The notes: generated by a model from the letters alone, not told the origin. DNA of 41,565 nucleotides from an uncultured archaeon (GCA_964651405.1 CAZYZB010000002.1:1-41565), one strand, 5' to 3'; positions 12,749 to 41,565 are shown, counted from the first letter of the stretch. Program-made: numbers and translations.

Positions 12749-12864
12749 TTATAACACCTGTTATATATATGATTCAATCAACTATTTAAAATTAATTAAG
12801 CCTATTTTTTACGTTAATTATCGTGTAAAACACTGTTATAATTCGTTTTTTGTCGATAAAAATG

Positions 12865-13276: not shown

Positions 13277-13281
13277 CATTT

Positions 13282-27693: not shown

Positions 27694-28207
27694 TTTCTAT
27701 TTTTTGATTTAGTGATTCGCAAAAATCCTTTATTTCCTCTGCTGGCAGATTGGCTTCTTTTATTTCATTTTCAATTGATGTAAGCAAATTATATTCCTTA
27801 GCTTTTTTTCTCAAATTTCTAGTATCAATAGAAATAGTTGTTATTAGATAATCATTCTTATTTATTTTAAAATCTCTTATGTTTTTTGATAGATTTTGTA
27901 TAAAAGGTATTAAAACTAGGCATCTCTCAGCAGTAGTAGGATTTTCATGTCTTTTAAAGGCAGTCATTAACTGATTTCTCATTTCAATTATTATAATTCT
28001 TAAATTTCTTAGAGCATTAAATATTATATCTTGAGTTTCTTCTTCTAATGGTTTGGAAAGTACATCAAATTGACTAGCTTTTAAAATTTCAATAAAACTG
28101 TTTAATTTCTCTTCAGATTCTTTAGCTTTTATTTTCCCCTCTGATATAAAGGACTTTAGTGTTGTATTTAAATTGTTTATATAGGGTGTATAATCATACA
28201 TAAGCAT
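27674..28207 (-). CDS. All-helical partner of the PIN-like protein
   Basis: Start trimmed to ATG 28205-28207 (MLMYDYTPY), with TATTTAAATT about 25-35 nt upstream. No domain recognised. Confidence 0.35.
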   Translation of the reverse strand: MLMYDYTPYINNLNTTLKSFISEGKIKAKESEEKLNSFIEILKASQFDVLSKPLEEETQDIIFNALRNLRIIIIEMRNQLMTAFKRHENPTTAERCLVLIPFIQNLSKNIRDFKINKNDYLITTISIDTRNLRKKAKEYNLLTSIENEIKEANLPAEEIKDFCESLNQKIEIEMQDL

Positions 28208-28371
28208 CAATCCTCTATAACATAATTTAAATACGTAAAGTTTAAATATAAACCAATAGGTTTGAAAAATTCTCATTTTTGAGACGATATATATTATCAT
28301 GTAAAATCTTAAAAAAGAAGTTTCTTTACCACCATACGTGGTAATAAAACATTAAAAGCTTTAATTAAGTT

Positions 28372-29046
28372 TTGCAAATAATAATTAATGATCTAATGGC
28401 AAAAAATGATATAATTACCTATCAACAGTTGAAGGAACGATATGGAAACATCCAAAGAGGAATAAATTACGGAAAAGGCGCAAAGCCAACTATAATTCTA
28501 ATGTCGGTTAGAGTAGGTTCGCCTTATGTTGATAAAGAAGGAATAGATGGTCAAATAGTTTATGAAGGTGAAGATGCTTATGGAAACCCAAATAAGAAGT
28601 CTATAGATCAAGAACTTACAAGACAGAATCGTTCTTTAACTAATGCCGTAATAAACTTTATTCAAGGAAAAAGAAAAGCAGAACCTGTGATTATTTTTGA
28701 AAAACTAGAAAAGAACAAATGGATTGACAGAGGGGAATTCAAACTTGTTGGTGTTCAAAGGGCTTTTGATGGGAAAAGATATGTTTATAGATTTACCTTA
28801 TCCTCTGGAGGAGAAGAGACTGAGGTTCTAGACCCAGATAACTATAGATCTAGAGGTATAACATCTGATGTACAAAAAGAAGTGTGGAAAAGAGACGGTG
28901 GTAGATGCGTTAAATGTGGATCAGATAAAAAATTACATTTTGATCATATAATTCCGTTCTCTAAAGGCGGAAGCAACGATGTTGATAATATTCAGATACT
29001 TTGTTCCAAGTGTAATATAAAAAAATCTGACAAAGTTGGTGGTTAG
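28372..29046 (+). CDS. SRA-like/HNH modification-dependent (type IV) restriction endonuclease candidate
   Basis: C-terminal HNH: RCVKCGS...HFDHIIPFSKGGSN...NIQILCSKCN. The N-terminal 150 aa have an SRA/YDG-like layout: IILMSVRVGSPYVDKEGIDGQIVYEGEDAYG ... DQELTRQNRSLTNA ... PVIIFEKL ... DRGEFKLVG. Confidence 0.6.
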   Translation: MQIIINDLMAKNDIITYQQLKERYGNIQRGINYGKGAKPTIILMSVRVGSPYVDKEGIDGQIVYEGEDAYGNPNKKSIDQELTRQNRSLTNAVINFIQGKRKAEPVIIFEKLEKNKWIDRGEFKLVGVQRAFDGKRYVYRFTLSSGGEETEVLDPDNYRSRGITSDVQKEVWKRDGGRCVKCGSDKKLHFDHIIPFSKGGSNDVDNIQILCSKCNIKKSDKVGG

Positions 29047-29068
29047 TTACTACTAAAGTAGTTAGCAA

Positions 29069-29263
29069 ATGTTTAATTATATATTTCAACTTCTTTCAAT
29101 CATGAATTATTCTAATCATTTGATTGAAACACTTCAGAGTATATGGTCAGAACTAGATCACATCCTTCAAGAAGGAGCAGTCTTCTCTTCTGAAGAGAAG
29201 GAAAGGATTCTTAAAGTTCTTAATGACTTGGAGAAATTAGTAGACGAATTCAATGTTTATTAA
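29069..29263 (+). CDS. Hypothetical small helical protein
   Basis: 64-aa ORF directly after the HNH gene. No domain. Confidence 0.25.
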   Translation: MFNYIFQLLSIMNYSNHLIETLQSIWSELDHILQEGAVFSSEEKERILKVLNDLEKLVDEFNVY

Positions 29264-31117
29264 CTATCTCTTTATCCTTGACCTAAAAAATTCTTCAGTA
29301 CCTTTGTCCATAAAATATATGTAACATCCCTTATGAGCTCGTGACATCAGAACCCTGTATATGTTCTTGAGATGCTGGGCAAGCTTCTCGTTATTTCTTT
29401 TCGCCATACTATCATGAGAGTTTTCTGGCTTTGCTACCCAAATCTGCTTTTCTTTATCATAAATCAAGTCATTGCCGAATATCACGCCTATGTAGTCAAA
29501 CTCAAATCCCTGTGCAGTATAAACAGTTCCTACTTGTTCCATACCACTTTCATGTGTAGCCCATTTCCAGAACTCTTCCTTGTTTTCCCATGGCATTTTG
29601 AAATCGCCAATAACAACGTCATTAACTAGACTTCCATCTGGATTAGGCTTGCTCCATGGCCAGCAGAAACCTGCAACAATCCTTGCACTGTTTTTCTTTT
29701 GAATGTTCTTCTCAAGAATAGCTTCTTTGAGCTTTATTGAATCGTCAAATATAACAAACTCCATTTTGTCAGATGATGTTAGAAACTGTTTCTCAGATTC
29801 CCTGATTCCAAGGATATTCTCAACCCACTGCAAATACGAATCAGATCCACCACATCTAAATTGCGTCTTTAATTCCGGCATTTCAATAATTTCTGCTCCT
29901 AACTTCTTGGCAGCATCTTTTATTAATTCAACACTTCCAATCTCACTAGGTCTTACCACCTGATACTCATCTATAAAAAATATCGATAGCTTGGAAGGTC
30001 TTATGAGGTCTTCTATCTGTGGGTTCTTTGACCTCAGCTTCCATGGAACTCCATAGTCATTACTATCTCTCCTTATCCTATGAGCCTCATCGCATATAAG
30101 TACGTCTATTTCATTTTCTTTGTATTTTGTAAAGCTGAAAAAATATTTGAAAAACTTGCTTGACCTACTTCCTAGTATATTCCTAAGTGTATTTGTAAAT
30201 GCCGATGAACCCGTCGCATGAAATACAGTCTTACCTTTCCTCATTAGTTCTCCCATTACCTCTAATGCAATGACAGACTTTCCGGTTCCAGGACCGCCTT
30301 TGATTATAACCACGGATTTCTTGTCTGAATCTGCAAGCTTCTTCGCCTTGTGCATTATGGCATTGTAAGCGGTAATCTGATCGTCTATTAGATTGAATAT
30401 CTGCTGCTTATTTATCATGTTCTTTGTGTGATCTAGCAGCTTTTTCGAAGGATGTATCGGACTGTTTATGAATCTGTTGAATACCTCTATTCCAGCGCCA
30501 TTCTGAAGTCTTTTCTTTAGAAAATTTCCAAAATCTTTTATGTCTTCCTTAGCAAACAGAGGATAATTCTCTATGATTTTTTCAAATTTTGACAGAAATA
30601 GAACATTGTTTTTATCATATCTTGAATAGTTGTGACAATAAGCGCATGAGTTTAGGAATACCTCTGGTTTTTCCTCGAATACAGTTACGAAATCCTTAAG
30701 ATCGAAGTGGTATCCTTGAACTTGAAGGGATGGATGTGCATGTTGAATCTCGAACTTTCCAAAATTCACTATAACGTTGCCTTCTATTTCAGAGTCTTTG
30801 ACATTTTCGTTTGACCACTGTTTCAACTCTATTAAAATTATACTATCTCTGTTAGATTCATCTTTGCCGAATAATAGTGCGTCTATCCTTCTAGTTGAAT
30901 AGGGCAGTTCATACTCGACTACTATTTTATTGTCCTTCAACTCTGAGAAGTCAAATGCGTTTTTAAGGAAATTCAGTGAGATGTTCCAAGAATTAAATTC
31001 TGATATGTTTACTCTTTTACCATAATAATCAAAATAGTTTTTAGAAATTATATCTGCAATCCTGTTTTGAATTATATCATCTCTGAAACTTTCAATCGTG
31101 CCTTCATAAAGTCTCAT
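29264..31117 (-). CDS. DUF2075-type (Schlafen-like) SF1 helicase with N-terminal PD-(D/E)xK-like nuclease motif
   Basis: 617 aa. RRIDALLFG...IILIELKQW (D...ExK), Walker A GGPGTGKS, Walker B ICDEAHR, and C-terminal YTAQGFEFDYIGVIFG, typical of DUF2075. Confidence 0.75.
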   Translation of the reverse strand: MRLYEGTIESFRDDIIQNRIADIISKNYFDYYGKRVNISEFNSWNISLNFLKNAFDFSELKDNKIVVEYELPYSTRRIDALLFGKDESNRDSIILIELKQWSNENVKDSEIEGNVIVNFGKFEIQHAHPSLQVQGYHFDLKDFVTVFEEKPEVFLNSCAYCHNYSRYDKNNVLFLSKFEKIIENYPLFAKEDIKDFGNFLKKRLQNGAGIEVFNRFINSPIHPSKKLLDHTKNMINKQQIFNLIDDQITAYNAIMHKAKKLADSDKKSVVIIKGGPGTGKSVIALEVMGELMRKGKTVFHATGSSAFTNTLRNILGSRSSKFFKYFFSFTKYKENEIDVLICDEAHRIRRDSNDYGVPWKLRSKNPQIEDLIRPSKLSIFFIDEYQVVRPSEIGSVELIKDAAKKLGAEIIEMPELKTQFRCGGSDSYLQWVENILGIRESEKQFLTSSDKMEFVIFDDSIKLKEAILEKNIQKKNSARIVAGFCWPWSKPNPDGSLVNDVVIGDFKMPWENKEEFWKWATHESGMEQVGTVYTAQGFEFDYIGVIFGNDLIYDKEKQIWVAKPENSHDSMAKRNNEKLAQHLKNIYRVLMSRAHKGCYIYFMDKGTEEFFRSRIKR

Positions 31118-31119
31118 AA

Positions 31120-31482
31120 TTATAACTCCGTATATTTTTTGGCGCTTCCTTTTGCTTTCTCTACAGGATATTTCTTTTCATTCTGTTCTATTTTCTTCTT
31201 TACAATTTCTGATATGTCAGCATTTATGGCATCTGCCAAATCAATACAATATACAATAATATCAGCCAATTCCTCACAAACATTCTGATATTTCTCATTG
31301 CTTTTCAACACTTCTTTTATTTCATCGGCAGTTTTCCATTGAAACAATTCTAGTAACTCGGCCGCTTCAATGCTCATAGAAACAGCAAGGTCTTTTGGAT
31401 TATGATACTTTTTCCAATCCCTTTCATCTCTGAAAGCTATAACTAATTTTTTCAAATCTTCTATTGTTATTTTATCATCCAT
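31120..31482 (-). CDS. MazG-like nucleoside triphosphate pyrophosphohydrolase
   Basis: 120 aa. FRDERDW, SIEAAELLELFQW and CEELADIIVY form the all-alpha MazG/dCTPase EExxE...ExxD pattern. Confidence 0.8.
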   Translation of the reverse strand: MDDKITIEDLKKLVIAFRDERDWKKYHNPKDLAVSMSIEAAELLELFQWKTADEIKEVLKSNEKYQNVCEELADIIVYCIDLADAINADISEIVKKKIEQNEKKYPVEKAKGSAKKYTEL

Positions 31483-31491
31483 AAAAATACA

Positions 31492-32955
31492 TTATTTAAT
31501 TTTATACTCTCTTCCATACTTAACAACTTTCGTTCTCGCAAACTTCCTGAACAACCCAGGATGCTCAGTATGAACGGGAAAGAGGACTTTCGGCTTTATT
31601 CTTTTCACAGCCTTGCCAAGCAGCGTCCCTGGCGCATGACCTGAGACATGCGTCCTGAACATCCTAATCTTAAAATGCCTTAGCCAATTATTAATTCTTT
31701 CTTGTTCGATCTCCATCTCAACATCAAATGGCTCGCACGTCGATTTAACGTAAAAAGCATTCCTCGGTTTTATATCTATTAGCTCTTTCAGATCAAAGTT
31801 CGAGCAGAACCAAACATACTTGCTAGGATCTTTACTAACGCATTCATGGTCAGAACAATTGTTAAGGAAAGGCTTTTCCCAATGCTCGTAATCCTGCTCC
31901 TTTATCCTTTGCGGAAAGTCCTTGCGTATGACTCCCCAGCCTTTTCTTATGCTATAGACACAAAGATTCTCGTCATCAATGCTTGGTATCTTGGCATCGT
32001 TGCACTCTTTCAAAAGACTTAACAAATAAGCCTGACGAGTACTGATAGCCAACTTCCTATCCAATGCCTTAGCTGCATTAAGAAACGACAGCATACGATC
32101 AGTATCACGTATCGGCCAGTCAGCAACTATAAGACCCTTGCACTTGCAACCAATCTTGGAAACCTTTTTCTCAACATCTTCTTCTTTCTGTCCCTTCCTC
32201 TCATTGATCCTCGTTCCCTCACTTATCATTGCGACAGGCTTTGACTCAGCGCACTTTTCAACGAACGTTTCACTCTCAGCGCCGCGGCGGCCGTGGAATC
32301 TTATATCACCAGTATAGACTATCGCTCCTTCTGAAGTATGAATAATAAAACCAGTCGCACCAGGCAATGAATGATCAACTGGATAAGGAATAATTTCCAA
32401 AGAATCAATTTTTATTTTATCTCCGAACTCAAAGTCGTTGACTTCCCTTTTAATAACGATATCATTATAGTGATACTGTTTAGTCTTTCTGCTGTATTCG
32501 CCTTGTTTGTTGACATAGATTTGAAAGTTTTCAACAATGTCAAGGAAATCCGTAAATCCTGACTGGGAAGTATTCTGGATTGCTTCAAGTATGAGTTTGG
32601 TCGGCTTTGAGCAGAATATTGGGACGTCATGTCGTATGTGATTTACATAAGCGGAATGGTCAGCGTGGGCATGTGATAAGAATATTCCTTGGATAGATGG
32701 CTCTGCTTCGAAGTCGCGTCCCATATGCTTTAGAAAATCTCTTCTATATAATCCTTTCAAATCAGGCAATAACCCGAACTCGATCAGGTCACCAATCACG
32801 TTGCACTTTCTCGGCTGCAAGAACTCTGAGAAGTATTGATTAGCTCGACTAAAGCTCATCCCAAAGTCAAGGAAAATATTCGTGCCGCGGTCTTCCAATA
32901 ATATTTTATTTCCACCAATCTCGTTGACGCCACCGTAGAAAGTAAGCGAAACCAT
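31492..32955 (-). CDS. Metallo-beta-lactamase fold / beta-CASP (RNase J-like) hydrolase
   Basis: 487 aa. FYGGVNEIGGNKILLED, the HxHxDH motif LSHAHADHS, and C-terminal RTHVSGHA. Sits 9 nt upstream of the MazG gene. Confidence 0.75.
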   Translation of the reverse strand: MVSLTFYGGVNEIGGNKILLEDRGTNIFLDFGMSFSRANQYFSEFLQPRKCNVIGDLIEFGLLPDLKGLYRRDFLKHMGRDFEAEPSIQGIFLSHAHADHSAYVNHIRHDVPIFCSKPTKLILEAIQNTSQSGFTDFLDIVENFQIYVNKQGEYSRKTKQYHYNDIVIKREVNDFEFGDKIKIDSLEIIPYPVDHSLPGATGFIIHTSEGAIVYTGDIRFHGRRGAESETFVEKCAESKPVAMISEGTRINERKGQKEEDVEKKVSKIGCKCKGLIVADWPIRDTDRMLSFLNAAKALDRKLAISTRQAYLLSLLKECNDAKIPSIDDENLCVYSIRKGWGVIRKDFPQRIKEQDYEHWEKPFLNNCSDHECVSKDPSKYVWFCSNFDLKELIDIKPRNAFYVKSTCEPFDVEMEIEQERINNWLRHFKIRMFRTHVSGHAPGTLLGKAVKRIKPKVLFPVHTEHPGLFRKFARTKVVKYGREYKIK

Positions 32956-33064
32956 ATTAAGAAAATGGTGTATCTGAAATAAAAATTCACCACTAAAAGT
33001 GGTAACAAACTAATTTGACTTCTGACTCTAAAATTGCATAATATATTTATGACAGTGATATCAT

Positions 33065-33310
33065 ATGATATATAGAGATATCATCAAAGGCAACTGTATA
33101 GTTAGGCTTTCACACCATGCTAGAAGACAAGCCAAGGAAAGAGGAATCTATTCAGGTCTGATAATAGAAGCAATAATGTGCGGAGAAATGAAGCAATTTG
33201 GAAAAAACTATGTCAAATTTATTAAAAGATGCGGAAAAGGCAATCTGATATGCTTGGGTGAAAGAAAGGAAAGAGACAAAATTTTGATACTCACGATAGA
33301 GTGGGGATGA
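33065..33310 (+). CDS. DUF4258-like toxin candidate
   Basis: 81 aa. VRLSHHARRQAKERGIYSGLIIEAI resembles the DUF4258 signature. Overlaps the downstream antitoxin-like gene. Confidence 0.45.
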   Translation: MIYRDIIKGNCIVRLSHHARRQAKERGIYSGLIIEAIMCGEMKQFGKNYVKFIKRCGKGNLICLGERKERDKILILTIEWG

Positions 33311-33648
33311 TTATGAACAGAATAAAAAAAGAAACAAGAAGCGAAGAGAGAAAATGTTGGAATTGCAAGTCTGTTATGGAAGAAATCACGGGGATGGATC
33401 CTGACGGAATTGCTTATAATTGCTGGAGATGCCCCAAATGTGGCGACGAGGTTCTAACAATGAGACAACTTCATGATATATCCGAAAAGGAAAAGAAGAC
33501 TATGGAAGCGAAGATATCCAAATGGGGCACGGCCGTTGCCATTAGGATACCCAAGTCGATAGTCCAGACTTATAATTTGGTGCCTGGCAAGAAAGCGACC
33601 ATCATACCAGAGAAGACAGGCTTCAAGGTTGTCTCAAGGAAGAAATAA
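33301..33648 (+). CDS. Zn-ribbon + AbrB/SpoVT/MazE-type antitoxin candidate
   Basis: 115 aa. CWNC...CPKCG, then KWGTAVAIRIPKSIV (swapped-hairpin barrel). Confidence 0.55.
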   Translation: MGMIMNRIKKETRSEERKCWNCKSVMEEITGMDPDGIAYNCWRCPKCGDEVLTMRQLHDISEKEKKTMEAKISKWGTAVAIRIPKSIVQTYNLVPGKKATIIPEKTGFKVVSRKK

Positions 33649-33655
33649 TTTTTCA

Positions 33656-33692
33656 GATAAAAACCTTTTATTGTAAATGATATTTAGAATTA
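33656..33692 (+). repeat. Cassette-site copy R0 (degenerate, with two short insertions)
   Basis: GATAAAAACCTTTTATTGTAAATGATATTTAGAATTA aligns to R7 (GATAAAGAATTGTAAAATTTAGAATTTAAG). Overlaps the stop of the Zn-ribbon gene exactly as R7 does. Confidence 0.5.
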
Positions 33693-33890
33693 CTTCAATT
33701 TTCTCTTTATCTTCTTTGAGAGCTGGTTTATCTCTTCGTCATCGAAATAACTCTTTCCGCAGTTTGAGCATTCCAGGCATTTCTGTCTTACTTTCACAGA
33801 ACCGGGGTTCTTTATCTCGAATGTAAAGTCCTTCTTCCTGCTGACAAGCTTAGTCGAACCGCATTCTATGCATCTGCTTAGTCTAGTCAT
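33690..33890 (-). CDS. YgiT/MqsA-type Zn-ribbon protein
   Basis: 66 codons from ATG 33888-33890; the track start at 33935 runs through the MBL relic. CIECGS...CSNCGKSYFDDEE. Paralog of 38308..38514. Confidence 0.55.
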   Translation of the reverse strand: MTRLSRCIECGSTKLVSRKKDFTFEIKNPGSVKVRQKCLECSNCGKSYFDDEEINQLSKKIKRKLK

Positions 33891-33897
33891 ACGCTCC

Positions 33898-33960
33898 CTA
33901 CAATAATATTTCATTACCGCCGACCTCGTTGACACCGCCGTAGAAAGTCAGAGACGTTAT
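33898..33960 (-). pseudogene. Relic 5' end of an MBL/beta-CASP gene (copy B)
   Basis: ATA-ACG-TCT... translates as ITSLTFYGGVNEVGGNEILL-stop, against the intact MVSLTFYGGVNEIGGNKILLED. The start codon is mutated to ATA. Confidence 0.8.
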
Positions 33961-33989
33961 AATAAAGAATTGTAAAAATCAGAATTTAA
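33961..33989 (+). repeat. Cassette-site copy R1
   Basis: AATAAAGAATTGTAAAAATCAGAATTTAA. Confidence 0.85.
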
Positions 33990-34082
33990 TGATTAGTAGT
34001 TTGTGGGCATAGGTTAGTTTACTGCCGTAGGCATTGAAAAGAGTTAAAAGACTTCTTAACCTAAAAATTAATAGGTGAAATT

Positions 34083-34661
34083 ATGGGTAAGATATTGGAA
34101 AAAATAAAAGAAACTTTTAAAAAGATTGCTGAATTTGATGCAAAATATCTTTCAATTTCGGAAAGTTCAAGCTCTTATGATTCACCATCTTATGATTCAT
34201 CAACAACTTATAGCCGCGGTGAGAAAATGACAAATATTGCTGAAATCATAGAATTACAAAGAAGAGGAGTTTACGCAATAAGCTCCAGTCCAGATGAAAT
34301 ACTCAGGGAATTACAAAGAAGAGAGCATACTGCATCAGGTTTCTTAACTGAAAAAGATTGTAGAACTTGTGGCTACATGAAATCGTATGGTGCGCTTTTT
34401 GGCAATAAAGTTCAGAAAAGTTGCGCCAGTTGTACTTACATGATAGAAGCGCGATCGAACGAATTATCCTTTGGATATAGTAAACCAAAACCTCAAATAC
34501 AGATAGATCCTGATGAATTAAAAAAAAGAATCGAAGCAGAAAGAAACTCGAGGTTAGAAAGCGTCTACCTTCTAGAAGACTTGGCTGATGTTGTAGGAGA
34601 TAAGGAGATATCTAGAAAAATCAGAGAAATAGCAAGTGCTGAAAGGCGGCTACGTCATTAG
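34083..34661 (+). CDS. Hypothetical protein (CxxC...CxxC)
   Basis: 192-aa ORF with a Ser-rich N-terminus and CRTCGY...CASCTY. Confidence 0.4.
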   Translation: MGKILEKIKETFKKIAEFDAKYLSISESSSSYDSPSYDSSTTYSRGEKMTNIAEIIELQRRGVYAISSSPDEILRELQRREHTASGFLTEKDCRTCGYMKSYGALFGNKVQKSCASCTYMIEARSNELSFGYSKPKPQIQIDPDELKKRIEAERNSRLESVYLLEDLADVVGDKEISRKIREIASAERRLRH

Positions 34662-34706
34662 TTCTCTAATTGCTCTATTCTCGATACATCAACTTTAAAT
34701 TTCATG

Positions 34707-34737
34707 TCAGGAAATCTTAGAAAAATCAGGATTTAAT
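34707..34737 (+). repeat. Cassette-site copy R2 (left half degenerate)
   Basis: TCAGGAAATCTTAGAAAAATCAGGATTTAAT, preceded by CATG as in full copies. Confidence 0.7.
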
Positions 34738-34739
34738 GT

Positions 34740-35102
34740 TTAAACATATGCACAAATATTTTTGTTCGTGTAATTGTTGAATATACATTTACAACCAGTA
34801 GGTGTTTTGGTTCGCATTGCACATGCTGGAGAAGCAGATGAGCATCTTGTGTTAATTTCATTATCAATCAACGCATATTTACTCATGTCAGTATTCTTAT
34901 TCACGCATGCTCCACAAGGTAAGTTAGGAGCATAAATACAATCAGAATTAACATTGCAACTAAAGTCTATCTTATAATATTCATTGTCGAGAAAATTATA
35001 AAGCTCGCCACAAGATTTGAACGTCAAAGTGTTTAGGTAAATATACAGAATCAAAATCAAAACAGCGATAACTGCAATTCCAGCAATGTAAAGTTTCTTC
35101 AT
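34740..35102 (-). CDS. Secreted/anchored Cys-rich small protein
   Basis: 120 aa. N-terminal hydrophobic helix, then about 12 Cys. The ATG abuts R3 and the stop is 3 nt from R2. Confidence 0.55.
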   Translation of the reverse strand: MKKLYIAGIAVIAVLILILYIYLNTLTFKSCGELYNFLDNEYYKIDFSCNVNSDCIYAPNLPCGACVNKNTDMSKYALIDNEINTRCSSASPACAMRTKTPTGCKCIFNNYTNKNICAYV

Positions 35103-35130
35103 AATAAAGAATTGTAAAAACTAAGATTTA
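35103..35130 (+). repeat. Cassette-site copy R3
   Basis: AATAAAGAATTGTAAAAACTAAGATTTA. Confidence 0.8.
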
Positions 35131-35164
35131 TTCATTTCAATGCATTCTTCATTACCAAAAAATA

Positions 35165-35350
35165 TCATCGCTTTCTTTTCGTAGTTTTACAGCAATAACA
35201 GCATTTCAATAAAACATATCCGTAAAATGCGAGTATTGCAGCAATTAATTCAATGATGATTGCTAAATCTGTACTAAATCCCCAGAAAGCTAGTCCATAT
35301 ATCACTATAATGACTGAAATCAAAATTGCAAGATAAAACGATATCTTCAT
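35165..35350 (-). CDS. Small two-helix membrane peptide with CCYCC tail
   Basis: 61 codons from ATG 35348-35350 (MKISFYLAIL...). The track's extra 13 aa are a translation of repeat R4. Confidence 0.5.
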   Translation of the reverse strand: MKISFYLAILISVIIVIYGLAFWGFSTDLAIIIELIAAILAFYGYVLLKCCYCCKTTKRKR

Positions 35351-35381
35351 GATAAAGAATATGGAAAAATCAAGATTTAAA
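35351..35381 (+). repeat. Cassette-site copy R4
   Basis: GATAAAGAATATGGAAAAATCAAGATTTAAA. Confidence 0.8.
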
Positions 35382-35445
35382 GTTCTCAAGTTGACGCATC
35401 TGTCGAAACGCTTAAATCTTTAATTGTTTTATTTTTATCAGTGTT

Positions 35446-36900
35446 TTGATGAGTGTAAGAGAGCATGCCGTAAAGATGGAAAAAAATCAGAAGGAAATAG
35501 GCGTTCTGTACAGTTCTCTACAGGGGAAGGCGAAAAGCGTAAGGGAGCAATACGAGAAGCTGGGAGAATTCATAAGGGTTCTGGATAGCATAGGGAATGT
35601 TATACCTGATGCAACAAAGTACACAGACCCCTTAGAAATACCCGCCGAAAGATTTTTACAGCAAAGTGCGTTTGTCGAGGAAACAAAGCAAAGGCTTTTG
35701 CAGATAGATGGCATCTACGAGACCGTTTTCAAAAACGGGAAGGACACTAGCACGAAGCAGTCTACAGCAAAAGTAGCAGAGCAGCCTGCGGCAAAAACAC
35801 CGAAACGTTCTACAGTGTATCTGGGGAAGGAGAAAAGATTCTTGGAGTTGGTCTCTAGCGGAATAAACACTCCAGATGACTTGATGAAAAATTTGGGAGT
35901 AAGCCAGTCGTATCTCAGCACCATTGGAACAAAACTTGCGGACGAAGGCAAGGTAAATAAAACAAGGCTTGAGGGGAAAAAACTTAGAATTGTATATTCT
36001 ATTCCAGGAAAAATAGGCGCGTCTGCAGCGACGTCCGTACCAACAGAAGAGCCGATGAAAATGTTTGACTATGAGTCATGGCTTAAAAGAATAGAAGGGG
36101 ATGTGGACTTGTCCAACCTTACGGTCATGGGAAGCGGTGGCATCAGGGTGTTGCTGGAAAGGCAGAACACTTCAGATATTGTAAAGATAAGCGAAGCTGC
36201 AAACATGCCCACCGAGAAAGTCGATAAGACGCTGAGGGCCTTCGAGCATGGCAATATTTTATCTGGGCAAGAACTGTCTGATTATGGTAAAAAACTTATC
36301 GGCGTTTACAAAAGCTTGGGCGTTCCAGAAAGAATTGCGTTACATTTGAGTAACAATGCCAAGACTGTGGAAACCATTTCCAGTCTGATGGGTTCAAAGC
36401 CAGAAGAGGTAATGAAAACCCTAGACCAGATGAAAGGTTGTGTGGTGCCCTTAGGCAATGGATACGCGTTTTCCCCGAAATTCTTCAAATTCGTGGACGA
36501 TGCCAGAGCTAAAATAAGAGAGAGTAACGTAAAAAGAAATTCGACGGTGACCGTGGAAGTCAAGGCGACGGCAGAAAGTCCTCAGAATCTTCTTATATTA
36601 AGTCTGGAGAAAAATTTTGGCACGCCCTCTATTAATAGATTGGATTTCAGAAAAAAAGCAGTATGGCAGATGTATGAGAACCTTGCTAAAAAATGCAGCC
36701 CCAAAGAATTGGTTGATCTGAATTCTGCTGTATCAAGAACAATGAAAGAGGAAATGAGCGTAAAGGATTATTACAAAACAATAGAACCATTAAGAAAGAA
36801 GCTTCTTCCAAGATTTTCAGGGAATAGTGACATACACTATAGTTCTAGAATTAATAGAAATATTTATTCTCACAGACAAAGAAGAAATTCTCATAGATGA
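35446..36900 (+). CDS. Large protein with three wHTH-like modules
   Basis: 484 aa (ATG at 35449). HTH-like segments: TPDDLMKNLGVSQSYLSTIGTKLADEGKV, TSDIVKISEAANMPTEKVDKTLRAFE and VETISSLMGSKPEEVMKTLDQM. Confidence 0.5.
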   Translation: MMSVREHAVKMEKNQKEIGVLYSSLQGKAKSVREQYEKLGEFIRVLDSIGNVIPDATKYTDPLEIPAERFLQQSAFVEETKQRLLQIDGIYETVFKNGKDTSTKQSTAKVAEQPAAKTPKRSTVYLGKEKRFLELVSSGINTPDDLMKNLGVSQSYLSTIGTKLADEGKVNKTRLEGKKLRIVYSIPGKIGASAATSVPTEEPMKMFDYESWLKRIEGDVDLSNLTVMGSGGIRVLLERQNTSDIVKISEAANMPTEKVDKTLRAFEHGNILSGQELSDYGKKLIGVYKSLGVPERIALHLSNNAKTVETISSLMGSKPEEVMKTLDQMKGCVVPLGNGYAFSPKFFKFVDDARAKIRESNVKRNSTVTVEVKATAESPQNLLILSLEKNFGTPSINRLDFRKKAVWQMYENLAKKCSPKELVDLNSAVSRTMKEEMSVKDYYKTIEPLRKKLLPRFSGNSDIHYSSRINRNIYSHRQRRNSHR

Positions 36901-37001
36901 TACCATCAGAAAGCAAGTAGTTCAATAATTCAGAGTTGCCTTAGATTCATGTTCTTCAGCATCTCGGATTTATTCATCATCTACAATCCAACCGCCTTCA
37001 C

Positions 37002-37066
37002 GTCCTGCAGAAGGATTTTATTTCCTCCGATTCATTAACTCCGCCGTAGAAAGTAAGCGAAACCAT
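37002..37066 (-). pseudogene. Relic 5' end of an MBL/beta-CASP gene (copy C, frameshifted)
   Basis: MVSLTFYGGVNE, then a 1-nt deletion. Restoring it gives IGGNKILLQD, against the intact IGGNKILLED. ATG 37064-37066 abuts R5. Confidence 0.8.
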
Positions 37067-37095
37067 GATAAAGAATTGTAAAGTCAAGATTTAAA
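37067..37095 (+). repeat. Cassette-site copy R5
   Basis: GATAAAGAATTGTAAAGTCAAGATTTAAA. Confidence 0.8.
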
Positions 37096-37133
37096 CAAAG
37101 AGAATTTAAAGATTTCTTTTTAATTGAATTAAT

Positions 37134-37733
37134 ATGAAAGTAAAAGACTTTTCAAAGGAAATAGTAAAAGCAGCTGTTAACAACGCTGAAGGCAAAACGT
37201 TTAGCCGTTCAAAAGTAGGATTGCTTGCAGTTGCTACTTCGAGTCTAAGCGGGCCATCTATAGAATTTTTCGGCAACCCAATATATCATCTGTCAGGTTT
37301 GCTGACTTACATACCTAACAGGATTTCAGACGTCTACAGCACCTATCAGTTGGCTAAACTGTCTGAAGATCCACGCTTCAAGGAGTACGGCCTTGAGAAA
37401 ATAGTGTATGAGGAAACGAGCTCGTTCTTACCGAAACAGCCTACTAGAAAAGATGTTCTTAACAAGAAGCATGTAGCCTTTAATATCTTAGGTGGAGTAA
37501 TCTCAACTGCTTTCCCTCCTGTAGGTTATGGACTTGTGGTTTCAACACCGTTTATTTATGAAAACAACACTACGTTTAAAAGATATCTAGAAAAATCATT
37601 TGAGATAGGCGATGATGTAAATCAGATGATAGAAAAAGGCCTAACAAAGGATGATATCAAATATTATTTGAATCTTCTGAATGATAGAAGAAAAATATGT
37701 AAAGAGTGTAAAGCTATTCATAAAAAAGATTGA
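37134..37733 (+). CDS. Hypothetical protein
   Basis: 199-aa ORF with no domain recognised. Confidence 0.4.
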   Translation: MKVKDFSKEIVKAAVNNAEGKTFSRSKVGLLAVATSSLSGPSIEFFGNPIYHLSGLLTYIPNRISDVYSTYQLAKLSEDPRFKEYGLEKIVYEETSSFLPKQPTRKDVLNKKHVAFNILGGVISTAFPPVGYGLVVSTPFIYENNTTFKRYLEKSFEIGDDVNQMIEKGLTKDDIKYYLNLLNDRRKICKECKAIHKKD

Positions 37734-37763
37734 ATATTTTTATTGAAACAATTAAAATTCTCA

Positions 37764-37786
37764 TTCAAGTTAACCAGGATTTAAGG
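37764..37786 (+). repeat. Cassette-site copy R6 (partial)
   Basis: ATTCAAGTTAACCAGGATTTAAGG. The right half is conserved. It ends 1 nt before the stop of the SNase gene. Confidence 0.6.
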
Positions 37787-37787
37787 T

Positions 37788-38282
37788 TTAACAGAATTTC
37801 CAAGCCCAATCTTCATTTGCAAATTCGCTAACATTACAAAATTCTTCATACACAGTAACATACTTATTAGAGATCATTTCAGCATTAAGATTTTTGCCGT
37901 TGCAATAAACAACCGCTACTATGCGACCGTAGCTTCCAGCAGTCTGTCCATCATCTTCATCAACTATCGCCTTTGATCCGATGGGGCATATGCTCAAAGC
38001 AATTTCTTTGGTTTCATTCCATCCTTCCTCATTATATTCAGGAGCATCGATCAAAGCAAGCCTTGTTGAAACGTTATCTACCTCCAAAGTATCTCCATCT
38101 ATAATTTCAGTGACGGTTCCGTTAAAGCATCTTGCAGTCCCTTTGCAAAACGAAGTTTCTGGACAACGACTAGGACCTCCTAAAACTTCGGTCCCATCTG
38201 GGCAAACCCATGTAAGTGGAGTAGTTTGCGAGCATCCAGCTACAAGAACTATTAAAATAATGATAGCAACTAAGAATTTCAT
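37788..38282 (-). CDS. Secreted lipoprotein-type staphylococcal-nuclease (SNase) homolog
   Basis: 164 aa. Lipobox-like LVAGCSQ, then IIDGDTLEV...TRLALIDAPE...GSYGRIVAVVY, the SNase pattern. The ATG abuts R7. Confidence 0.75.
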   Translation of the reverse strand: MKFLVAIIILIVLVAGCSQTTPLTWVCPDGTEVLGGPSRCPETSFCKGTARCFNGTVTEIIDGDTLEVDNVSTRLALIDAPEYNEEGWNETKEIALSICPIGSKAIVDEDDGQTAGSYGRIVAVVYCNGKNLNAEMISNKYVTVYEEFCNVSEFANEDWAWKFC

Positions 38283-38312
38283 GATAAAGAATTGTAAAAT
38301 TTAGAATTTAAG
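38283..38312 (+). repeat. Cassette-site copy R7
   Basis: GATAAAGAATTGTAAAATTTAGAATTTAAG. Overlaps the stop codon of 38308..38514. Confidence 0.8.
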
Positions 38313-38514
38313 ATTTTATTTTCCTGTCAATTTTCCTTGCCAAATCATCTGACTGCTCCTCGTCAAAGTACAACTCACCGCAGTTCTTGCACTCTATGCA
38401 TTTCTGATCTTTAATCTTTATCTTGTCAGGATTTCTTCTCTCGAATTCCAGATTCTTTTTAGCAGTCCTTAAATCTTTGCTCCCGCATTCTATGCACTTG
38501 CTCATTTTTTGCAT
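38308..38514 (-). CDS. YgiT/MqsA-type Zn-ribbon protein (antitoxin-like)
   Basis: 68 aa. CIECGS...CKNCGELYFDEEQ. Lies downstream of a toxin-like gene, in the MqsR/MqsA order. Confidence 0.6.
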   Translation of the reverse strand: MQKMSKCIECGSKDLRTAKKNLEFERRNPDKIKIKDQKCIECKNCGELYFDEEQSDDLARKIDRKIKS

Positions 38515-38528
38515 GTAAATCTCCTATT

Positions 38529-38852
38529 TTATAGTTGTCCATCTTCTTTTAAATTCTTTATAGCTTTTTTGTATTCGTCTATGTCAGGCTGCTGACCTGG
38601 GAATATTGTCTTGGCTATTATGTTGTCTTTCTCGTAGACGAACGGAACGGTAACCAGTTTCTTGTTCGTAACCTCGAATATGCATTTGAACGCTCCACAT
38701 TTGTCAGGAATTATTACGCCAAGCCCTTTCAGAGCAATCTCTGTAACATTCTTTCCGTTCTCAAAGCCACATCTGTCAAAAACGCCTTTCAAAATTGCTT
38801 TCTCTATAAAGTGTTTGGTGAATATGACATTCTTCTGGTTTCTATTATACAT
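38529..38852 (-). CDS. Putative toxin partner of the Zn-ribbon protein
   Basis: 107 aa. VIFTKHFIEKAILKG loosely resembles the DUF4258-type signature. Gene order is the main argument. Confidence 0.35.
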   Translation of the reverse strand: MYNRNQKNVIFTKHFIEKAILKGVFDRCGFENGKNVTEIALKGLGVIIPDKCGAFKCIFEVTNKKLVTVPFVYEKDNIIAKTIFPGQQPDIDEYKKAIKNLKEDGQL

Positions 38853-38925
38853 AACTTCATTTAATTTTTAAAATATATTTATGTCAAGTTTACCACTATA
38901 TGCAGTAACAAAAAGAGGTAGTAAG

Positions 38926-39612
38926 ATGATTAAAGCAATAATATTTGATTTGGATAACACTTTGATTGATTTCATGAGAATGAAAAGACTGAGTTGCGAA
39001 GCAGCCATGGACGCTATGATAAAGTCAGGATTGAAAATAGACAAGGAAAAAGGTCTAAAAATCATGTTTCAATTATATTCAGAATATGGTTTTGAATACC
39101 AAAAGATATTCCAAGTCTTCATGAAAAAAGTTCTGGGAAGAATAGATTATGGAATAATGGCTTCTGGCATAGTTGCTTATCGCAGAGTCAAAGAAGGTCT
39201 ACTATATCCTTATCCAAATGTTGTTCCTACGTTAAGCAAACTAAAGAAAAAATACAAGCTAGCTATCCTATCAGACGCACCAAAAATACAGGCGTGGATA
39301 AGATTAGCTGCAATGGGAATCCAAGACAAGTTTGACTTGGTAATAACATTTGACGAAACCATATCCAAGAAACCTAGCAAGAAGCCATTTCTATATCTTT
39401 TGAAAAAACTAAAACTGAAACCAGAAGAATGTGTGATGATAGGAGACTCTTTGAGAAGAGACATTGCTCCTGCCAAGCATTTAGGCTTCAAGACTGTTTT
39501 TGCAAAATATGGTGAAGACAAAGAGAAATCAAGAATTAAGCCTGACTATATAATAAATGATATAAAAGAGTTGTTAAAAATCCAGGATTTAAGTATTTTC
39601 AAAAAAACATAG
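38926..39612 (+). CDS. HAD-superfamily hydrolase
   Basis: ATG at 38926 (MIKAIIFDLDNTLIDF = motif I), LAILSDAP (motif II), K...MIGDSLRRDI (motifs III/IV). The 3' end contains repeat R8. Confidence 0.8.
   Translation: MIKAIIFDLDNTLIDFMRMKRLSCEAAMDAMIKSGLKIDKEKGLKIMFQLYSEYGFEYQKIFQVFMKKVLGRIDYGIMASGIVAYRRVKEGLLYPYPNVVPTLSKLKKKYKLAILSDAPKIQAWIRLAAMGIQDKFDLVITFDETISKKPSKKPFLYLLKKLKLKPEECVMIGDSLRRDIAPAKHLGFKTVFAKYGEDKEKSRIKPDYIINDIKELLKIQDLSIFKKT
39562..39593 (+). repeat. Cassette-site copy R8 (inside the HAD 3' end)
   Basis: ATAAAAGAGTTGTTAAAAATCCAGGATTTAAG, encoding ...IKELLKIQDL. Confidence 0.8.
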
Positions 39613-39666
39613 CTATTTAAATTATCAACTCAAACAATTCTTAATTAAAATAAGGAGAAAATAAAT

Positions 39667-39831
39667 ATGTCATTCGAAAATAGAGGTAGCTTTGATAGAG
39701 CTCCTAGAGAAATGCACAAAGCAGTTTGTTCTGAGTGTGGAAAGGAATGCGAAGTTCCATTCCAACCAACAGAAGGCAAGCCTGTCTTTTGTAGAGATTG
39801 TTTTGCTAAAAAAGCACCAAGAAGATTTTAG
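39667..39831 (+). CDS. CxxC-x17-CxxC zinc-ribbon small protein
   Basis: 54 aa, not in the ORF track: MSFENRGSFDRAPREMHKAVCSECGKECEVPFQPTEGKPVFCRDCFAKKAPRRF. AAGGAG lies 8 nt upstream. Confidence 0.55.
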   Translation: MSFENRGSFDRAPREMHKAVCSECGKECEVPFQPTEGKPVFCRDCFAKKAPRRF

Positions 39832-39905
39832 TAGTTTCTAAGCAATTAGATTACTATTTCATAGCATGAGCTATATCTTTTTCAAGTCAAAAAGAATCAT
39901 GTGAA

Positions 39906-39933
39906 ATAAAATACGAAAAAATCAGGATTTAAG
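39906..39933 (+). repeat. Cassette-site copy R9 (internal deletion in left half)
   Basis: ATAAAATACGAAAAAATCAGGATTTAAG. Confidence 0.7.
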
Positions 39934-39988
39934 ACTTACCACAAGGTTATATTTTCAAAGGTCAATTAATATCAATAAGGCTGAAAAT

Positions 39989-40555
39989 ATGAAATTTATT
40001 GATAAGAAAAATATCAAGTTGGACAAAGTGCCTACATTACTAGACAAATTTGTTGTAGACTTTATAAAAATTCTGCAAAAACACGCAAACTATGTCATAG
40101 TAAGCGGCTATGTGTCAATATTGTTTGGCAGGTCAAGGGCTACAGAGGATATAGACATTTTAGTTGAAAGAATGCCAAAAAAAAGATTTTATAACTTTTA
40201 TTCAAACTTGCAAAAAAGCGGTTATTGGTGTGTAAACATAGAAAACAAGGATGAAATTCTAAAAATATTGCTTGATGGCCTTGCAGTAAGACTTGCTAAA
40301 AAACCAAGAATAATTCCAAATGTCGAATTCAAATTCATAAAAAATGCCATTGAAAAAAATGCCATAAAAACAAGCATAAATGTAATCATGCCTTCTGGAA
40401 AAATAAAAATATCAAACATAGAACTGCAAATAGCATACAAAGAAAAAGTCCTGAAATCAGAAAAGGACCTGGAGGATGCAAGGCATTTGGAAGAGATTTT
40501 TAAGGATGAGATAAGTAATAAATTATTAGGAAAATACAGGAAGATGCTTAAATGA
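39989..40555 (+). CDS. Nucleotidyltransferase-fold (MNT-like) protein
   Basis: 188 aa. SGYVSILFGRSRATEDIDILV fits the GS-x(9-10)-DxD minimal nucleotidyltransferase motif. Confidence 0.5.
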   Translation: MKFIDKKNIKLDKVPTLLDKFVVDFIKILQKHANYVIVSGYVSILFGRSRATEDIDILVERMPKKRFYNFYSNLQKSGYWCVNIENKDEILKILLDGLAVRLAKKPRIIPNVEFKFIKNAIEKNAIKTSINVIMPSGKIKISNIELQIAYKEKVLKSEKDLEDARHLEEIFKDEISNKLLGKYRKMLK

Positions 40556-40713
40556 AAGTGTTTGATAAGGCAAAGAATAGAAAGGAAAGAATGGAATTTG
40601 TAAAAACTTGGGCAGTGTATGTTAGAACCCATTCTGACAGGGACTGGAGCAGACAGCAAAAAGTGGTTGTGGATTCGCAATTAAAGAATTTGATCAGCCC
40701 GAACAGGAAATAA
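40552..40713 (+). CDS. Small ORF coupled to the nucleotidyltransferase gene
   Basis: 53 codons. The ATG overlaps the upstream TGA (ATGA). No domain. Confidence 0.3.
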   Translation: MKVFDKAKNRKERMEFVKTWAVYVRTHSDRDWSRQQKVVVDSQLKNLISPNRK

Positions 40714-40744
40714 AATTCTTATAATTCAAAATGAAATAAACATT

Positions 40745-40922
40745 ATGATTAAAGCCATTATCTTCGACTTGGACAACACTTTGATCTCATGAAAAAAGGC
40801 TGAGCTGCGAAGCAGCCATGAAAGCCATGATTTCTGCTGGAAAGTAGACAAGGAAAAAGCGAGCGTCAAGCCGGATTACATCATAAACAATATAAAAGAA
40901 TTGTTAAAAATCAGGATTTAAG
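40745..40922 (+). pseudogene. Decayed second HAD hydrolase gene (5' ~115 bp + 3' ~55 bp, large internal deletion)
   Basis: MIKAIIFDLDNTLI..., then frameshifts, then ...KPDYIINNIKELLKIRI-stop. Aligns to both ends of 38926..39612 at roughly 80 percent identity by eye. Confidence 0.8.
40892..40922 (+). repeat. Cassette-site copy R10 (inside the HAD pseudogene 3' end)
   Basis: ATAAAAGAATTGTTAAAAATCAGGATTTAAG. Confidence 0.85.
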
Positions 40923-40941: not shown

Positions 40942-41565
40942 CTAAAACACTTTAACAGAACCAAAAATCTTACGGTAACTTGTTCCCTCTCTTGTTTTAG
41001 ATTCAGCAGCAAGGACAGAGTCACTTACATAGCAATCTTCAGAGATTATAGAATTTTCAAAAATTACACTTCCAGAAACCTTAGCATCTTTACAGACTGT
41101 TACATTCTCCATCAAGTGTGTTTTTGGGCCAATAACAGCATCTTTTCCAATTTTACATCCTCTTTCCACTATAACTGGAGGGATGAAATGTGCATTAGCG
41201 TGCCTTTTAACGCTTTCATCGATCCTTGTTTGTCCGCCTAATTCTTGATCGAAAGCTATATGATTCACCTTTAGATATTCTTCAGGTTTACCAAAATCTA
41301 CAAAATTAAAATCATGCATGTAACAACCAACATTTTTACCTTTATTAACTAACCATGCATGAAAATCTCCTATCCTATCAGGTTTTTTACCAGCTTCTAA
41401 TTCTTCTTCTACATATGTCCCTAAATATTCAACTATTTTTGGAGTATAATATAAAACACCAGTTGCAGCTATGTTACTTTTTGGTTCTTTTGGTTTTTCT
41501 TCTAGTTTCTCAATAAGATGTGATCCCTTTCTCAAAGAAATGACCCCCAGAGACGTGAGTTCTTT
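40942..41565 (-). CDS. Sugar-phosphate nucleotidyltransferase, C-terminal part with left-handed beta-helix (5' end outside window)
   Basis: The frame stays open to the window edge. EKPKEP...ATGVLYY (nucleotidyltransferase core end), then hexapeptide repeats IGKDAVIGPKTHLMENVTVCKDAKVSGSVIFENSII. Confidence 0.7.
   Translation of the reverse strand, partial: KELTSLGVISLRKGSHLIEKLEEKPKEPKSNIAATGVLYYTPKIVEYLGTYVEEELEAGKKPDRIGDFHAWLVNKGKNVGCYMHDFNFVDFGKPEEYLKVNHIAFDQELGGQTRIDESVKRHANAHFIPPVIVERGCKIGKDAVIGPKTHLMENVTVCKDAKVSGSVIFENSIISEDCYVSDSVLAAESKTREGTSYRKIFGSVKVF

Follow-up and report, generated by a model that had tools for sequence, protein, structure and literature searches.

A 17-nt site bounds rearranged gene cassettes in a chromosomal locus of Aenigmarchaeota

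What holds together a stretch of archaeal chromosome in which gene after gene is set off from the next by the same short sequence, and do these genes move? The question is raised by a 41,565-nt stretch of DNA from an uncultured archaeon (GCA_964651405.1 CAZYZB010000002.1:1-41565; hereafter the window), in which a first reading made from the sequence alone (the sequence-only reading) described a row of direct repeats and took it for a platform of site-specific recombination. The part of the window examined here as the array runs from 33656 to 40922. We compared this locus with its counterparts in related genomes, and we think it rather probable that one clade of Aenigmarchaeota has here a sedentary chromosomal gene-cassette array, whose cassettes are moved by core-by-core recombination. 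The window is chromosomal and archaeal, as it encodes RadA, RPA, a DnaG-type primase, NrdD, MtrA/MtrH and SHMT, and its host is an Aenigmarchaeota (DPANN) archaeon. For a HAD hydrolase encoded in the array, more than 100 orthologs are 70-90% identical, and the named ones are all labelled Aenigm(at)archaeota. When the RNase J-like protein encoded at the left edge of the array was used as the query, only Thermoplasmatales-labelled genomes with 41-47% identical proteins were returned, and the core motif described below is absent there.

The repeated element is shorter than the ~30 bp ascribed to it at first. Ten copies, R1 to R10, are all on the plus strand, as the sequence-only reading had it, and what is common to all of them is the right-hand 17 nt only (the core; Table 1). 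The core consensus is RAAAWTCARRATTTAAD in a count matrix drawn from 87 sites. It contains the imperfect dyad AAATC-AG-GATTT, a 5-2-5 layout with A invariant at position 8. Only some of the copies (R1, R3, R4, R5 and R7) have the left arm, CAT(G/A)ATAAAGAATTGT; in R8 and R10 a variant of this arm with two indels is coding sequence. The claimed eleventh copy, R0, falls under the threshold of a position weight matrix (PWM) built from the window copies. It occupies the position of the first site in two related loci (7996 in L019 and 6671 in L022), just past a conserved toxin/antitoxin pair, and a hand alignment suggests that it is probably a decayed first site with small deletions; the MAFFT alignment was not clean.

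The core is a property of this locus. Allowing up to 2 mismatches, AAAAATCAGGATTTAA has 7 matches in the window where shuffled sequence gives 0.28, and at a PWM score of at least 14.5 bits there is no match in the window outside 33.9-40.9 kb, the top score outside being 14.4 bits at 23910. No core was found in the left flanks, which comprise 33 kb of the window and the corresponding regions of L019, L022 and L024, nor in the 5 kb past the last site of the relative L290. Across the array loci there are 97 PWM matches in 176 kb, compared with 0-2 in shuffles. All but one of 90 matches are oriented like HAD, and the strands of the flanking genes occur in every combination (-- at 35 sites, +- at 21, -+ at 16 and ++ at 15). 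Neighbouring sites are 143-2926 bp apart (median 778), and an interval usually holds one gene. Covariation between core positions 7 and 10, as pairing in a hairpin would give, is absent. Across unrelated cassettes conservation is restricted to the 17 nt, the cores at convergent gene ends (21 sites) average 20.05 bits against 19.8-20.5 in the other classes, and the third positions of the last HAD codons are conserved, as detailed below; because of these three observations we conclude that the core is under selection, and not merely as a promoter.

Related loci were obtained by fetching the HAD locus and by a pattern scan of metagenomes (they carry labels such as L019, L022, L024 and L211). The scan used a degenerate 27-nt pattern, which is too permissive as a metagenome query: the 120 stretches it returned consist of 113 chance matches and 7 real arrays, one of them from the close relative L211. 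Annotated loci of 15-21 kb around the array were available for nine relatives. At least nine further related genomes have the same 17-nt core at intervals through the syntenic locus, where the array extends over ~10-18 kb with ~10-20 sites and the units between co-oriented cores hold one to three genes. It starts immediately to the right of a gene for an RNase J-like beta-CASP protein, which stands at the left edge in the window and in L019, L022, L024, L160, L183, L286 and L291; in L160, 13 nt separate its ATG from the first core. A DUF4258-like/MazE-like pair is placed between this flank gene and the first site in the window and likewise in L019 and L022. In the closest relative, L290, the array ends after 16 sites and ~16 kb. 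That of the window runs past the window's right end, where the sequence-only reading had proposed to look: L001, a public Logan contig of the same strain, has sites at window-equivalent ~42861, 43049 and 44529, and its order beyond the window edge is a nucleotidyltransferase gene, two small open reading frames (ORFs) and a TrpB-like gene, with further sites. Array size varies between lineages. The window lineage, L019, L022, L024, L223 and L286 are array-rich, L287 and L293 (HAD 78-79% identical) have two or three sites, and L288 (HAD 71% identical) has none, with the RNase J-like gene and HAD as neighbours. We take this adjacency to be the probable ancestral arrangement.

Gene order in these arrays changes at the cores. 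Every mapped synteny breakpoint between relatives lies in a core or at the edge of an extended site, so the identical order that would have spoken for a static locus is not what relatives show. The window and the L211 and L290 loci are 94-98% identical in nucleotide sequence over their common segments, and the order of these segments differs. Relative to L211, five common blocks are rearranged, with all boundaries at a core or extended-site edge. Window positions 34643-34736, which end in R2, correspond to L211o 1-94, after which L211 continues with the cassette that follows R9 in the window; 35099-37785 (R3 to R6) is collinear with L211, the boundary at R3 beginning at the CAT 17 nt left of the core; and 39917-40859 matches L211o 79-1033 at 94.9%. 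The SNase cassette (R6-R7) is not found at this position in L211, which has a single core there and a more divergent allele of the neighbouring cassette. In L019 the SNase cassette is found on the other side of HAD (window 37778-38311 versus L019 10660-11190, 88.6%). The zinc-ribbon cassette (R8-R9) is elsewhere in L211, to the left of HAD in L022 and to its right in L024, and the TrpB-like and nucleotidyltransferase cassettes are in swapped order between the window and L019, with the junctions in cores.

Gain or loss bounded by cores is seen in two pairs of close strains. Between L024 and L291, which are 97-99% identical, a 1-kb cassette together with one core is present in the former and missing from the latter, with a nucleotide-exact junction; between the window and L211 it is combined with replacement of the neighbouring cassette. 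The orientation of cassettes relative to the cores is kept, with the exception of one 90-nt inverted match (L019 14279-14368 / L022 10789-10700). No mapped breakpoint falls at the longer paralogous repeats of the region (HAD/HAD' and zinc-ribbon paralogs); all are at cores. Together this shows that recombination has repeatedly joined different cassettes at cores, and that it was conservative and preserved orientation. Comparative genomics thus supports the interpretation of the units as cassettes.

The site derives from the HAD gene. HAD orthologs end ...KPDY(V/I)INDIKELLKIRI (peptide ...NDIKELLKIRI), and their coding end AATGATATAAAAGAATTGTTAAAAATCAGGATTTAAG can be aligned for ~33 nt with the non-coding extended sites, CATGATAAAGAATTGTAAAAATCAGGATTTAAG. 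The extended site is a copy of the conserved HAD 3′ coding end. Descent ran from HAD to the site, because the HAD genes of array-free and array-poor genomes keep the peptide N-D-I-x-E-L-L-K, which is ancestral to HAD, and have no core. In array-bearing genomes the last HAD codons are AGG ATT TAA (AAG ATT TAA in L019), and for third-position identity the last five codons rank 5th among 218 windows, which suggests that the 3′ end of HAD may be constrained at the DNA level. The window also contains relics of diverged alleles of both bordering genes, namely two RNase J-like 5′ fragments, which abut R1 and R5, and a HAD copy before R10 whose ortholog is full length in L211 (L211o 907-1572). The RNase J-like fragments abutting sites suggest past recombination involving the left border of the array. 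A second HAD paralog lies inside the array in opposite orientation in L024 (15761-16372) and L291 (15101-15712); it ends ...ELLRNYK* without an inverted core, which fits avoidance of inverted sites. The sequence-only reading had missed the HAD origin of the repeat and the broken HAD and RNase J-like copies, as well as the promoter and stop geometry of the site and the extension of the array past the window.

The site also seems to carry expression signals for its neighbours. Its minus-strand reading is CTTAAATCCTGATTTTT, and the recurring layout is CTTAAATCCTGATTTTT-N13-ATG. A minus-strand ATG stands 13-14 nt from the core at 14 of the 51 sites with a minus-strand gene starting to the left, a spacing that puts TTAAAT ~27 nt upstream of the ATG, and at 15 of the 56 sites with a minus-strand gene ending to the right its stop codon is the TTA inside ATTTAA. 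The close packing of minus-strand genes described in the sequence-only reading is borne out: stops lie 2 nt past R2 (34740), 2 nt past R6 (37788) and inside R7 (38308), and the ATGs at 35102 and 38282 are each 13 nt from the next core. Because TATA-like boxes that differ from the site stand ~25-32 nt before the ATG of other window genes, leaderless transcripts appear to be common here. The site thus seems to serve one neighbour as a promoter and the other as a stop codon. Cargo is found on both strands, with the majority strand pointing to the array start, and no common promoter was found; set against integron cassettes, the site brings its own TATA-like box, put at 23 nt before the ATG in that comparison. 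In archaeal BRE/TATA promoters a TATA-like box stands about 26-27 nt upstream of the transcription start and is oriented with the gene it serves. As such a promoter the element fits by spacing at the 14 sites just given, but 21 sites lie between convergent gene ends and orientation ignores the gene strand. A generic genome-wide promoter, which the sequence-only reading had named as a way in which it could be wrong, was rejected as the sole explanation: the motif is absent from the 33-kb flank and from the relatives' flanks, and the TATA boxes of other genes differ from it.

Two further sequence features accompany some sites. At some of them (e.g. L019 14236 and 18162) a third half-site, TTAAATCC, lies inverted 5-6 nt left of the core, and with the core it makes a ~32-nt palindrome; in such cases a plus-strand gene ends at the site. 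A second conserved leader, CATA(C/A)TAATCATATAG, is found between minus-strand ATG and core (L286 8443, L024 20506, L287 2037 and window-equivalent 43049). It is common to unrelated cargo and coexists with the HAD-derived leader type, CATGATAAAGAATTGT.

If cassettes move at cores, what moves them? We hypothesize that the HAD 3′ end was the original attachment site, that cassettes would leave as circles and go back in by conservative core-to-core recombination, and that the enzyme may be a sequence-specific recombinase whose gene lies elsewhere in the genome or on a transient element, which would be why none is present in the locus. The site would at the same time act as promoter for leaderless minus-strand cargo, through a TATA-like box ~27 nt before the start codon, and its TTTAA would often give the stop codon of the next minus-strand gene. 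In favor of a sequence-specific enzyme, the same 17 nt are kept across genomes whose genes differ by ~20%, and the core combines a 5-2-5 dyad and an invariant A with a lack of hairpin covariation; breakpoints lie at cores and not at longer repeats. From this we infer site-specific recombination by an unlinked enzyme. The fuller proposal is an undescribed DPANN cassette system in which a dedicated recombinase, possibly of a new family, acts on a 17-bp double-stranded, HAD-derived site that doubles as promoter and stop codon; we put it forward tentatively, as quite possible though short of probable, and there is a substantial chance that the system is new in its own right.

Several candidates for the enzyme were considered and rejected. 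The RNase J-like protein is a ribonuclease-type protein; its top solved structure is PDB 2az4 (E = 5e-27), followed by RNase J chains, and its match to the NCBIfam RNase J family is weak. Topoisomerase IB and a Cas4-like nuclease are near HAD in array-poor genomes too and do not track the array. A gene for a eukaryote-type topoisomerase IB is found within ~10 kb of HAD in most of these Aenigmarchaeota (L019 8451-9887; L290 1869-3356; L286 17071-18570; L287 7552-9054; L293 14839-16347), whether array-rich or array-poor, and so it follows synteny. Two proteins of 281 and 208 aa encoded at 26848-28300 match neither a family nor a solved structure, and we recognised no counterpart of them among the genes listed for related loci. 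An RNA gene or tRNA-linked attachment site was likewise set aside, with no Rfam match and no tRNA gene in the window.

A number of observations weigh against the cassette-array reading and against a dedicated enzyme. Across the 41.5-kb window and ~15 related loci of 4-21 kb each, both array ends included, no match to any recombinase family of Pfam turned up. In the window, where all ORFs of at least 110 aa and the array ORFs were profile-scanned, there was no recombinase, transposase or Cas family match, as the sequence-only reading had stated. Its idea of a site-specific platform thus stands for reordering, gain and loss at cores and lacks the linked recombinase, an outcome in these ~15 loci that it had itself listed as refuting. 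The point of exchange differs by case, from the left edge of the core in L024/L291 to between core positions 5 and 10, and a pairwise left/right-homology statistic for locating it was masked by left-arm similarity of a generic kind. Cores at rearranged junctions are more divergent than the sequence flanking them, which points to further events or gene conversion. All Logan contigs of the window's own strain have one gene order, neither excised circles nor population variants were seen, though no search aimed at these was made, part of the cargo is housekeeping-like (topoisomerase IB, nucleotidyltransferase, HAD), and the promoter role is deduced from geometry alone.

Chief among the rivals is homologous or microhomology-mediated recombination of one repeat with another, which would give the same junctions. 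On this account the core is a regulatory element (TATA/BRE with an operator, or a boundary element) that has spread through the locus, and the rearrangements are by-products made with no dedicated recombinase. The TATA-like box is rightly placed for leaderless minus-strand genes, the short dyad is operator-like, RadA is encoded in the window, and the lack of a linked recombinase and of a fixed exchange point both suit the idea; exact loss of one repeat with the intervening DNA is, moreover, the expected product of direct-repeat recombination. However, the sites keep the direction of the array whatever the gene strand, a quarter of them are placed between convergent ends with no need of a promoter and are equally conserved, and the motif is absent from all flanking genes. 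Seventeen nucleotides are also short for RadA-type recombination, and the mapped breakpoints spare the longer paralogous repeats. We consider this account unlikely, if a serious one. The array might instead be a graveyard left by elements encoding their own integrases (viruses, plasmids or tycheposon-like islands) that entered one after another at the 3′ end of HAD, each duplicating the attachment site, with the integrases decayed and the units left as remnants. A site that copies the 3′ end of its target gene is a hallmark of gene-restoring integrative elements, diverged HAD and RNase J-like allele fragments do lie inside the array, and elements that target tRNA genes give the same pattern in the islands of Prochlorococcus (bioRxiv 10.1101/2020.12.28.424599). 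There, too, the repeats are co-oriented copies of the target-gene 3′ end, repeated insertion moves older units inward, target-gene fragments are scattered and the chromosomal place is fixed. In contrast, the target here is an archaeal protein-coding gene and not a tRNA gene, the conserved site is only 17 bp, and the units are very small (0.15-2.9 kb), usually hold one gene and are reordered individually. In a survey of ~100 intervals between sites, from 12 loci, there was no integrase or integrase fragment, and 14-mer and 17-mer queries of a viral collection gave single chance matches only, with no array, multi-site contig or viral or plasmid link. Since strains that are 95-99% identical differ in order, recombination among sites is ongoing. 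We regard a graveyard as improbable.

Known cassette-like systems offer two more explanations. The sites could be dif-like targets of the chromosomal XerA that cassettes exploit, comparable to IMEX at dif or to Acinetobacter pdif modules. This would account for the missing nearby recombinase and for one locus per genome, and in Xer modules short sites likewise flank small units, toxin/antitoxin pairs among them, with the recombinase encoded apart from the modules. Neighbouring pdif sites alternate in orientation, whereas the sites here, in an archaeal host, are co-oriented. XerA recombines dif in vitro without partner proteins, and archaeal dif is a 28-bp site of two 11-bp arms and a 6-bp spacer (11-6-11), as opposed to 17 conserved bp and a 5-2-5 dyad here (PMC2958812). 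With both length and arm spacing wrong, a dif-like site was rejected, and we hold this explanation to be very improbable. For integrons, the relevant background is that attC is an imperfect palindrome of 55-140 nt that folds single-stranded and has R''/L''-L'/R' boxes, that cassettes are promoterless and read from a common promoter at the attI end, and that integrons were recently reported in archaea with attC-type sites only. A classical integron array minus its integrase (CALIN) would explain co-oriented sites that bound single-gene cassettes and the toxin/antitoxin cargo, and attC-type arrays have been reported in other Aenigmatarchaeota (PMC9668308). Against it, 121-nt windows around R1-R10 have no attC-like fold as single-stranded DNA (z = -1.7 to +1.4 versus shuffles), conservation is confined to 17 nt, GTTRRRY/RYYYAAC boxes are absent, and neither compensatory covariation nor IntI was found. 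The only public genome in which the array is known, GCA_001786585.1, is not among the integron-bearing archaea in the supplementary text of the survey (PMC9668308). A CALIN is hardly credible here.

The resemblance to sedentary chromosomal integrons, such as the superintegrons of Vibrio and those described in archaea (PMC9668308), is nonetheless one of organization. Both are long chromosomal arrays of co-oriented sites with mostly single-gene cassettes, order and content vary among close relatives with junctions at sites, toxin/antitoxin pairs and small secreted or function-unassigned proteins abound in the cargo, and a conserved end gene is transcribed away from the array. The three differences named in the sequence-only reading hold: the site is short and does not fold, the cargo occupies both strands, and IntI is missing. 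The site is a 17-bp core of double-strand type in place of a folded single-stranded attC, the array-end gene encodes an RNase J-like nuclease, the site apparently supplies promoter and stop where integrons have a common Pc promoter, and it derives from the 3′ end of a resident protein-coding gene. An integron in the strict sense was rejected. Small serine recombinases of the invertase/resolvase type act at short dyads centred on a 2-bp crossover dinucleotide. The AAATC-AG-GATTT dyad, with its invariant A at position 8, might resemble such a site, for instance Hin/hix; the exchange point differs between cases, and no Resolvase domain was found in the loci scanned. CRISPR arrays, with 24-47-bp repeats and regular spacers of ~30-40 bp, differ from this locus in that its sites are irregularly spaced and its intervals hold genes. 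In the literature searched, the motif string appears in no paper and no such arrays are described for Aenigmarchaeota or DPANN archaea, in line with the sequence-only reading, which knew of no described system of this architecture.

The features of the array and of the genes at its two ends are listed in Table 1. The cargo labels were verified in part, by matches to HAD, SNase (weak), the MqsA/YgiT zinc finger, DUF4258 with a MazE-like partner, CxxC-x17-CxxC and DUF8150.

Table 1. Sites, cargo and bordering genes of the array, in window coordinates
Feature	Position	Strand	Remarks
RNase J-like beta-CASP metallo-beta-lactamase gene	31492..32955	-	Pfam Lactamase_B_2; transcribed away from array
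Toxin/antitoxin-like pair (DUF4258-like; zinc-ribbon/MazE-like)	33065..33648	+	Weak Pfam matches
R0, probable decayed site	33656..33694	+	Below PWM threshold
Cargo, MqsA/YgiT-type zinc finger	33690..33893	-	TIGR03831, E = 2e-7
5′-end fragment of diverged RNase J-like gene, start codon lost	33901..33960	-	Repeat family D2, 76% to 32896-32967
R1 core AAAAATCAGAATTTAAT	33974..33990	+	PWM 19.7 bits
Cargo, 192 aa, no family match	34083..34661	+	
R2 core	34721..34737	+	PWM 22.3 bits; synteny breakpoint vs L211
Cargo, Cys-rich secreted protein, 120 aa	34740..35102	-	Absent from L211
R3 core, weaker (ATTTAT replaces ATTTAA)	35116..35132	+	PWM 13.9 bits; ATG of left gene 13 nt away
Cargo, small membrane peptide	35165..35353	-	
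R4 core	35365..35381	+	PWM 20.9 bits
Cargo, ~483 aa, no family match	35446..36900	+	
Second RNase J-like 5′-end fragment, ATG intact, abuts R5	37007..37069	-	Family D2; also L211o 3664-3724
R5 core	37079..37095	+	PWM 17.1 bits
Cargo, 199 aa, no family match	37134..37733	+	
R6 core, left boundary of SNase cassette	37769..37785	+	PWM 16.5 bits; L211o homology stops at 37785
Cargo, secreted SNase-like nuclease	37788..38282	-	PF00565 weak; NCBIfam EcnA-like match
R7 core	38296..38312	+	PWM 15.8 bits; contains stop of gene 38308-38514
Three-gene cassette	38308..39612	mixed	MqsA-like 38308-38514 (-); 107 aa 38529-38852 (-); HAD hydrolase 38926-39612 (+); whole unit kept in L024 9358-10622
R8 core within HAD 3′ coding end	39577..39593	+	PWM 21.4 bits; one-base insertion extends reading frame
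Cargo, CxxC-x17-CxxC zinc ribbon	39667..39831	+	TIGR04272, E = 3e-20
R9 core	39917..39933	+	PWM 23.6 bits; synteny breakpoint vs L211
Cargo, 188-aa protein and DUF8150 protein	39989..40713	+	
HAD pseudogene, N- and C-terminal pieces, ~480 bp internal deletion	40745..40920	+	Families D7, D12, D14
R10 core	40906..40922	+	PWM 23.6 bits
Sugar-nucleotidyltransferase gene, 3′ part, next cassette, leaves window	40942..41565	-	L001 genes

Other observations concern the cargo and the surroundings of the array. The TrpB-like cassette, for a pyridoxal phosphate (PLP) enzyme, lies at L001 3258-4628 (window-equivalent ~43061-44431). It has only ~8 close homologs, past which identity is ~65% to proteins labelled Zixibacteria, Thermoplasmatota and others; this suggests that the TrpB-like cargo may have been acquired horizontally. 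Public assemblies of the window strain break at 39735-39804, within the zinc-ribbon gene and not at a site, likely because other parts of the genome hold zinc-ribbon paralogs. To the left of the array, 26848-31482 holds a defence-like cluster, which includes the 281-aa and 208-aa proteins mentioned above, a MazG-like protein, an SRA-HNH nuclease (28372-29046) and a Schlafen/DUF2075-type helicase (29264-31117), for which PADLOC names PDC-S41, AbiO and Nhi. The trio of helicase, MazG and RNase J-like genes is kept in L019 and L022. Farther away, at 12850-13280, at least 10 copies of the palindrome (C)TTCACGTGAA(C) occur in both orientations. They lie in a 1.1-kb stretch without an ORF of at least 110 aa, directly upstream of a gene for an AAA_22 P-loop ATPase (13282-14370), and the cluster looks like a replication-origin repeat field or an operator field. 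A radical-SAM activase gene at 5599-7914 is split by an intein with a LAGLIDADG homing endonuclease; it is adjoined by a gene for an anaerobic ribonucleotide reductase with an N-terminal NrdR-type zinc ribbon and ATP cone (8086-10767), and 4843-5523 is a free-standing NUMOD3-HNH homing-endonuclease gene.

Of the platforms that store single genes as cassettes and shuffle them, only integrons are, to our knowledge, well understood. The genomes of DPANN archaea are tiny, these archaea depend on hosts, and how they exchange genes is poorly understood. In these archaea the locus described here behaves, at the level of the population, like an integron with an unrelated short site and no IntI. Should a dedicated enzyme exist, the recombination system would be new, and its compact 17-bp target, which also carries expression signals, would be of evolutionary and possibly practical interest. 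Were the site also to act as promoter and stop, inserted cassettes would arrive ready for expression. Genome-reduced symbiotic archaea would then have an integron-like means to shuffle and exchange genes for small secreted proteins, toxin/antitoxin pairs and nucleases. Even if host recombination acts, a motif that organizes a chromosomal region into exchangeable gene units is an unusual genome architecture.

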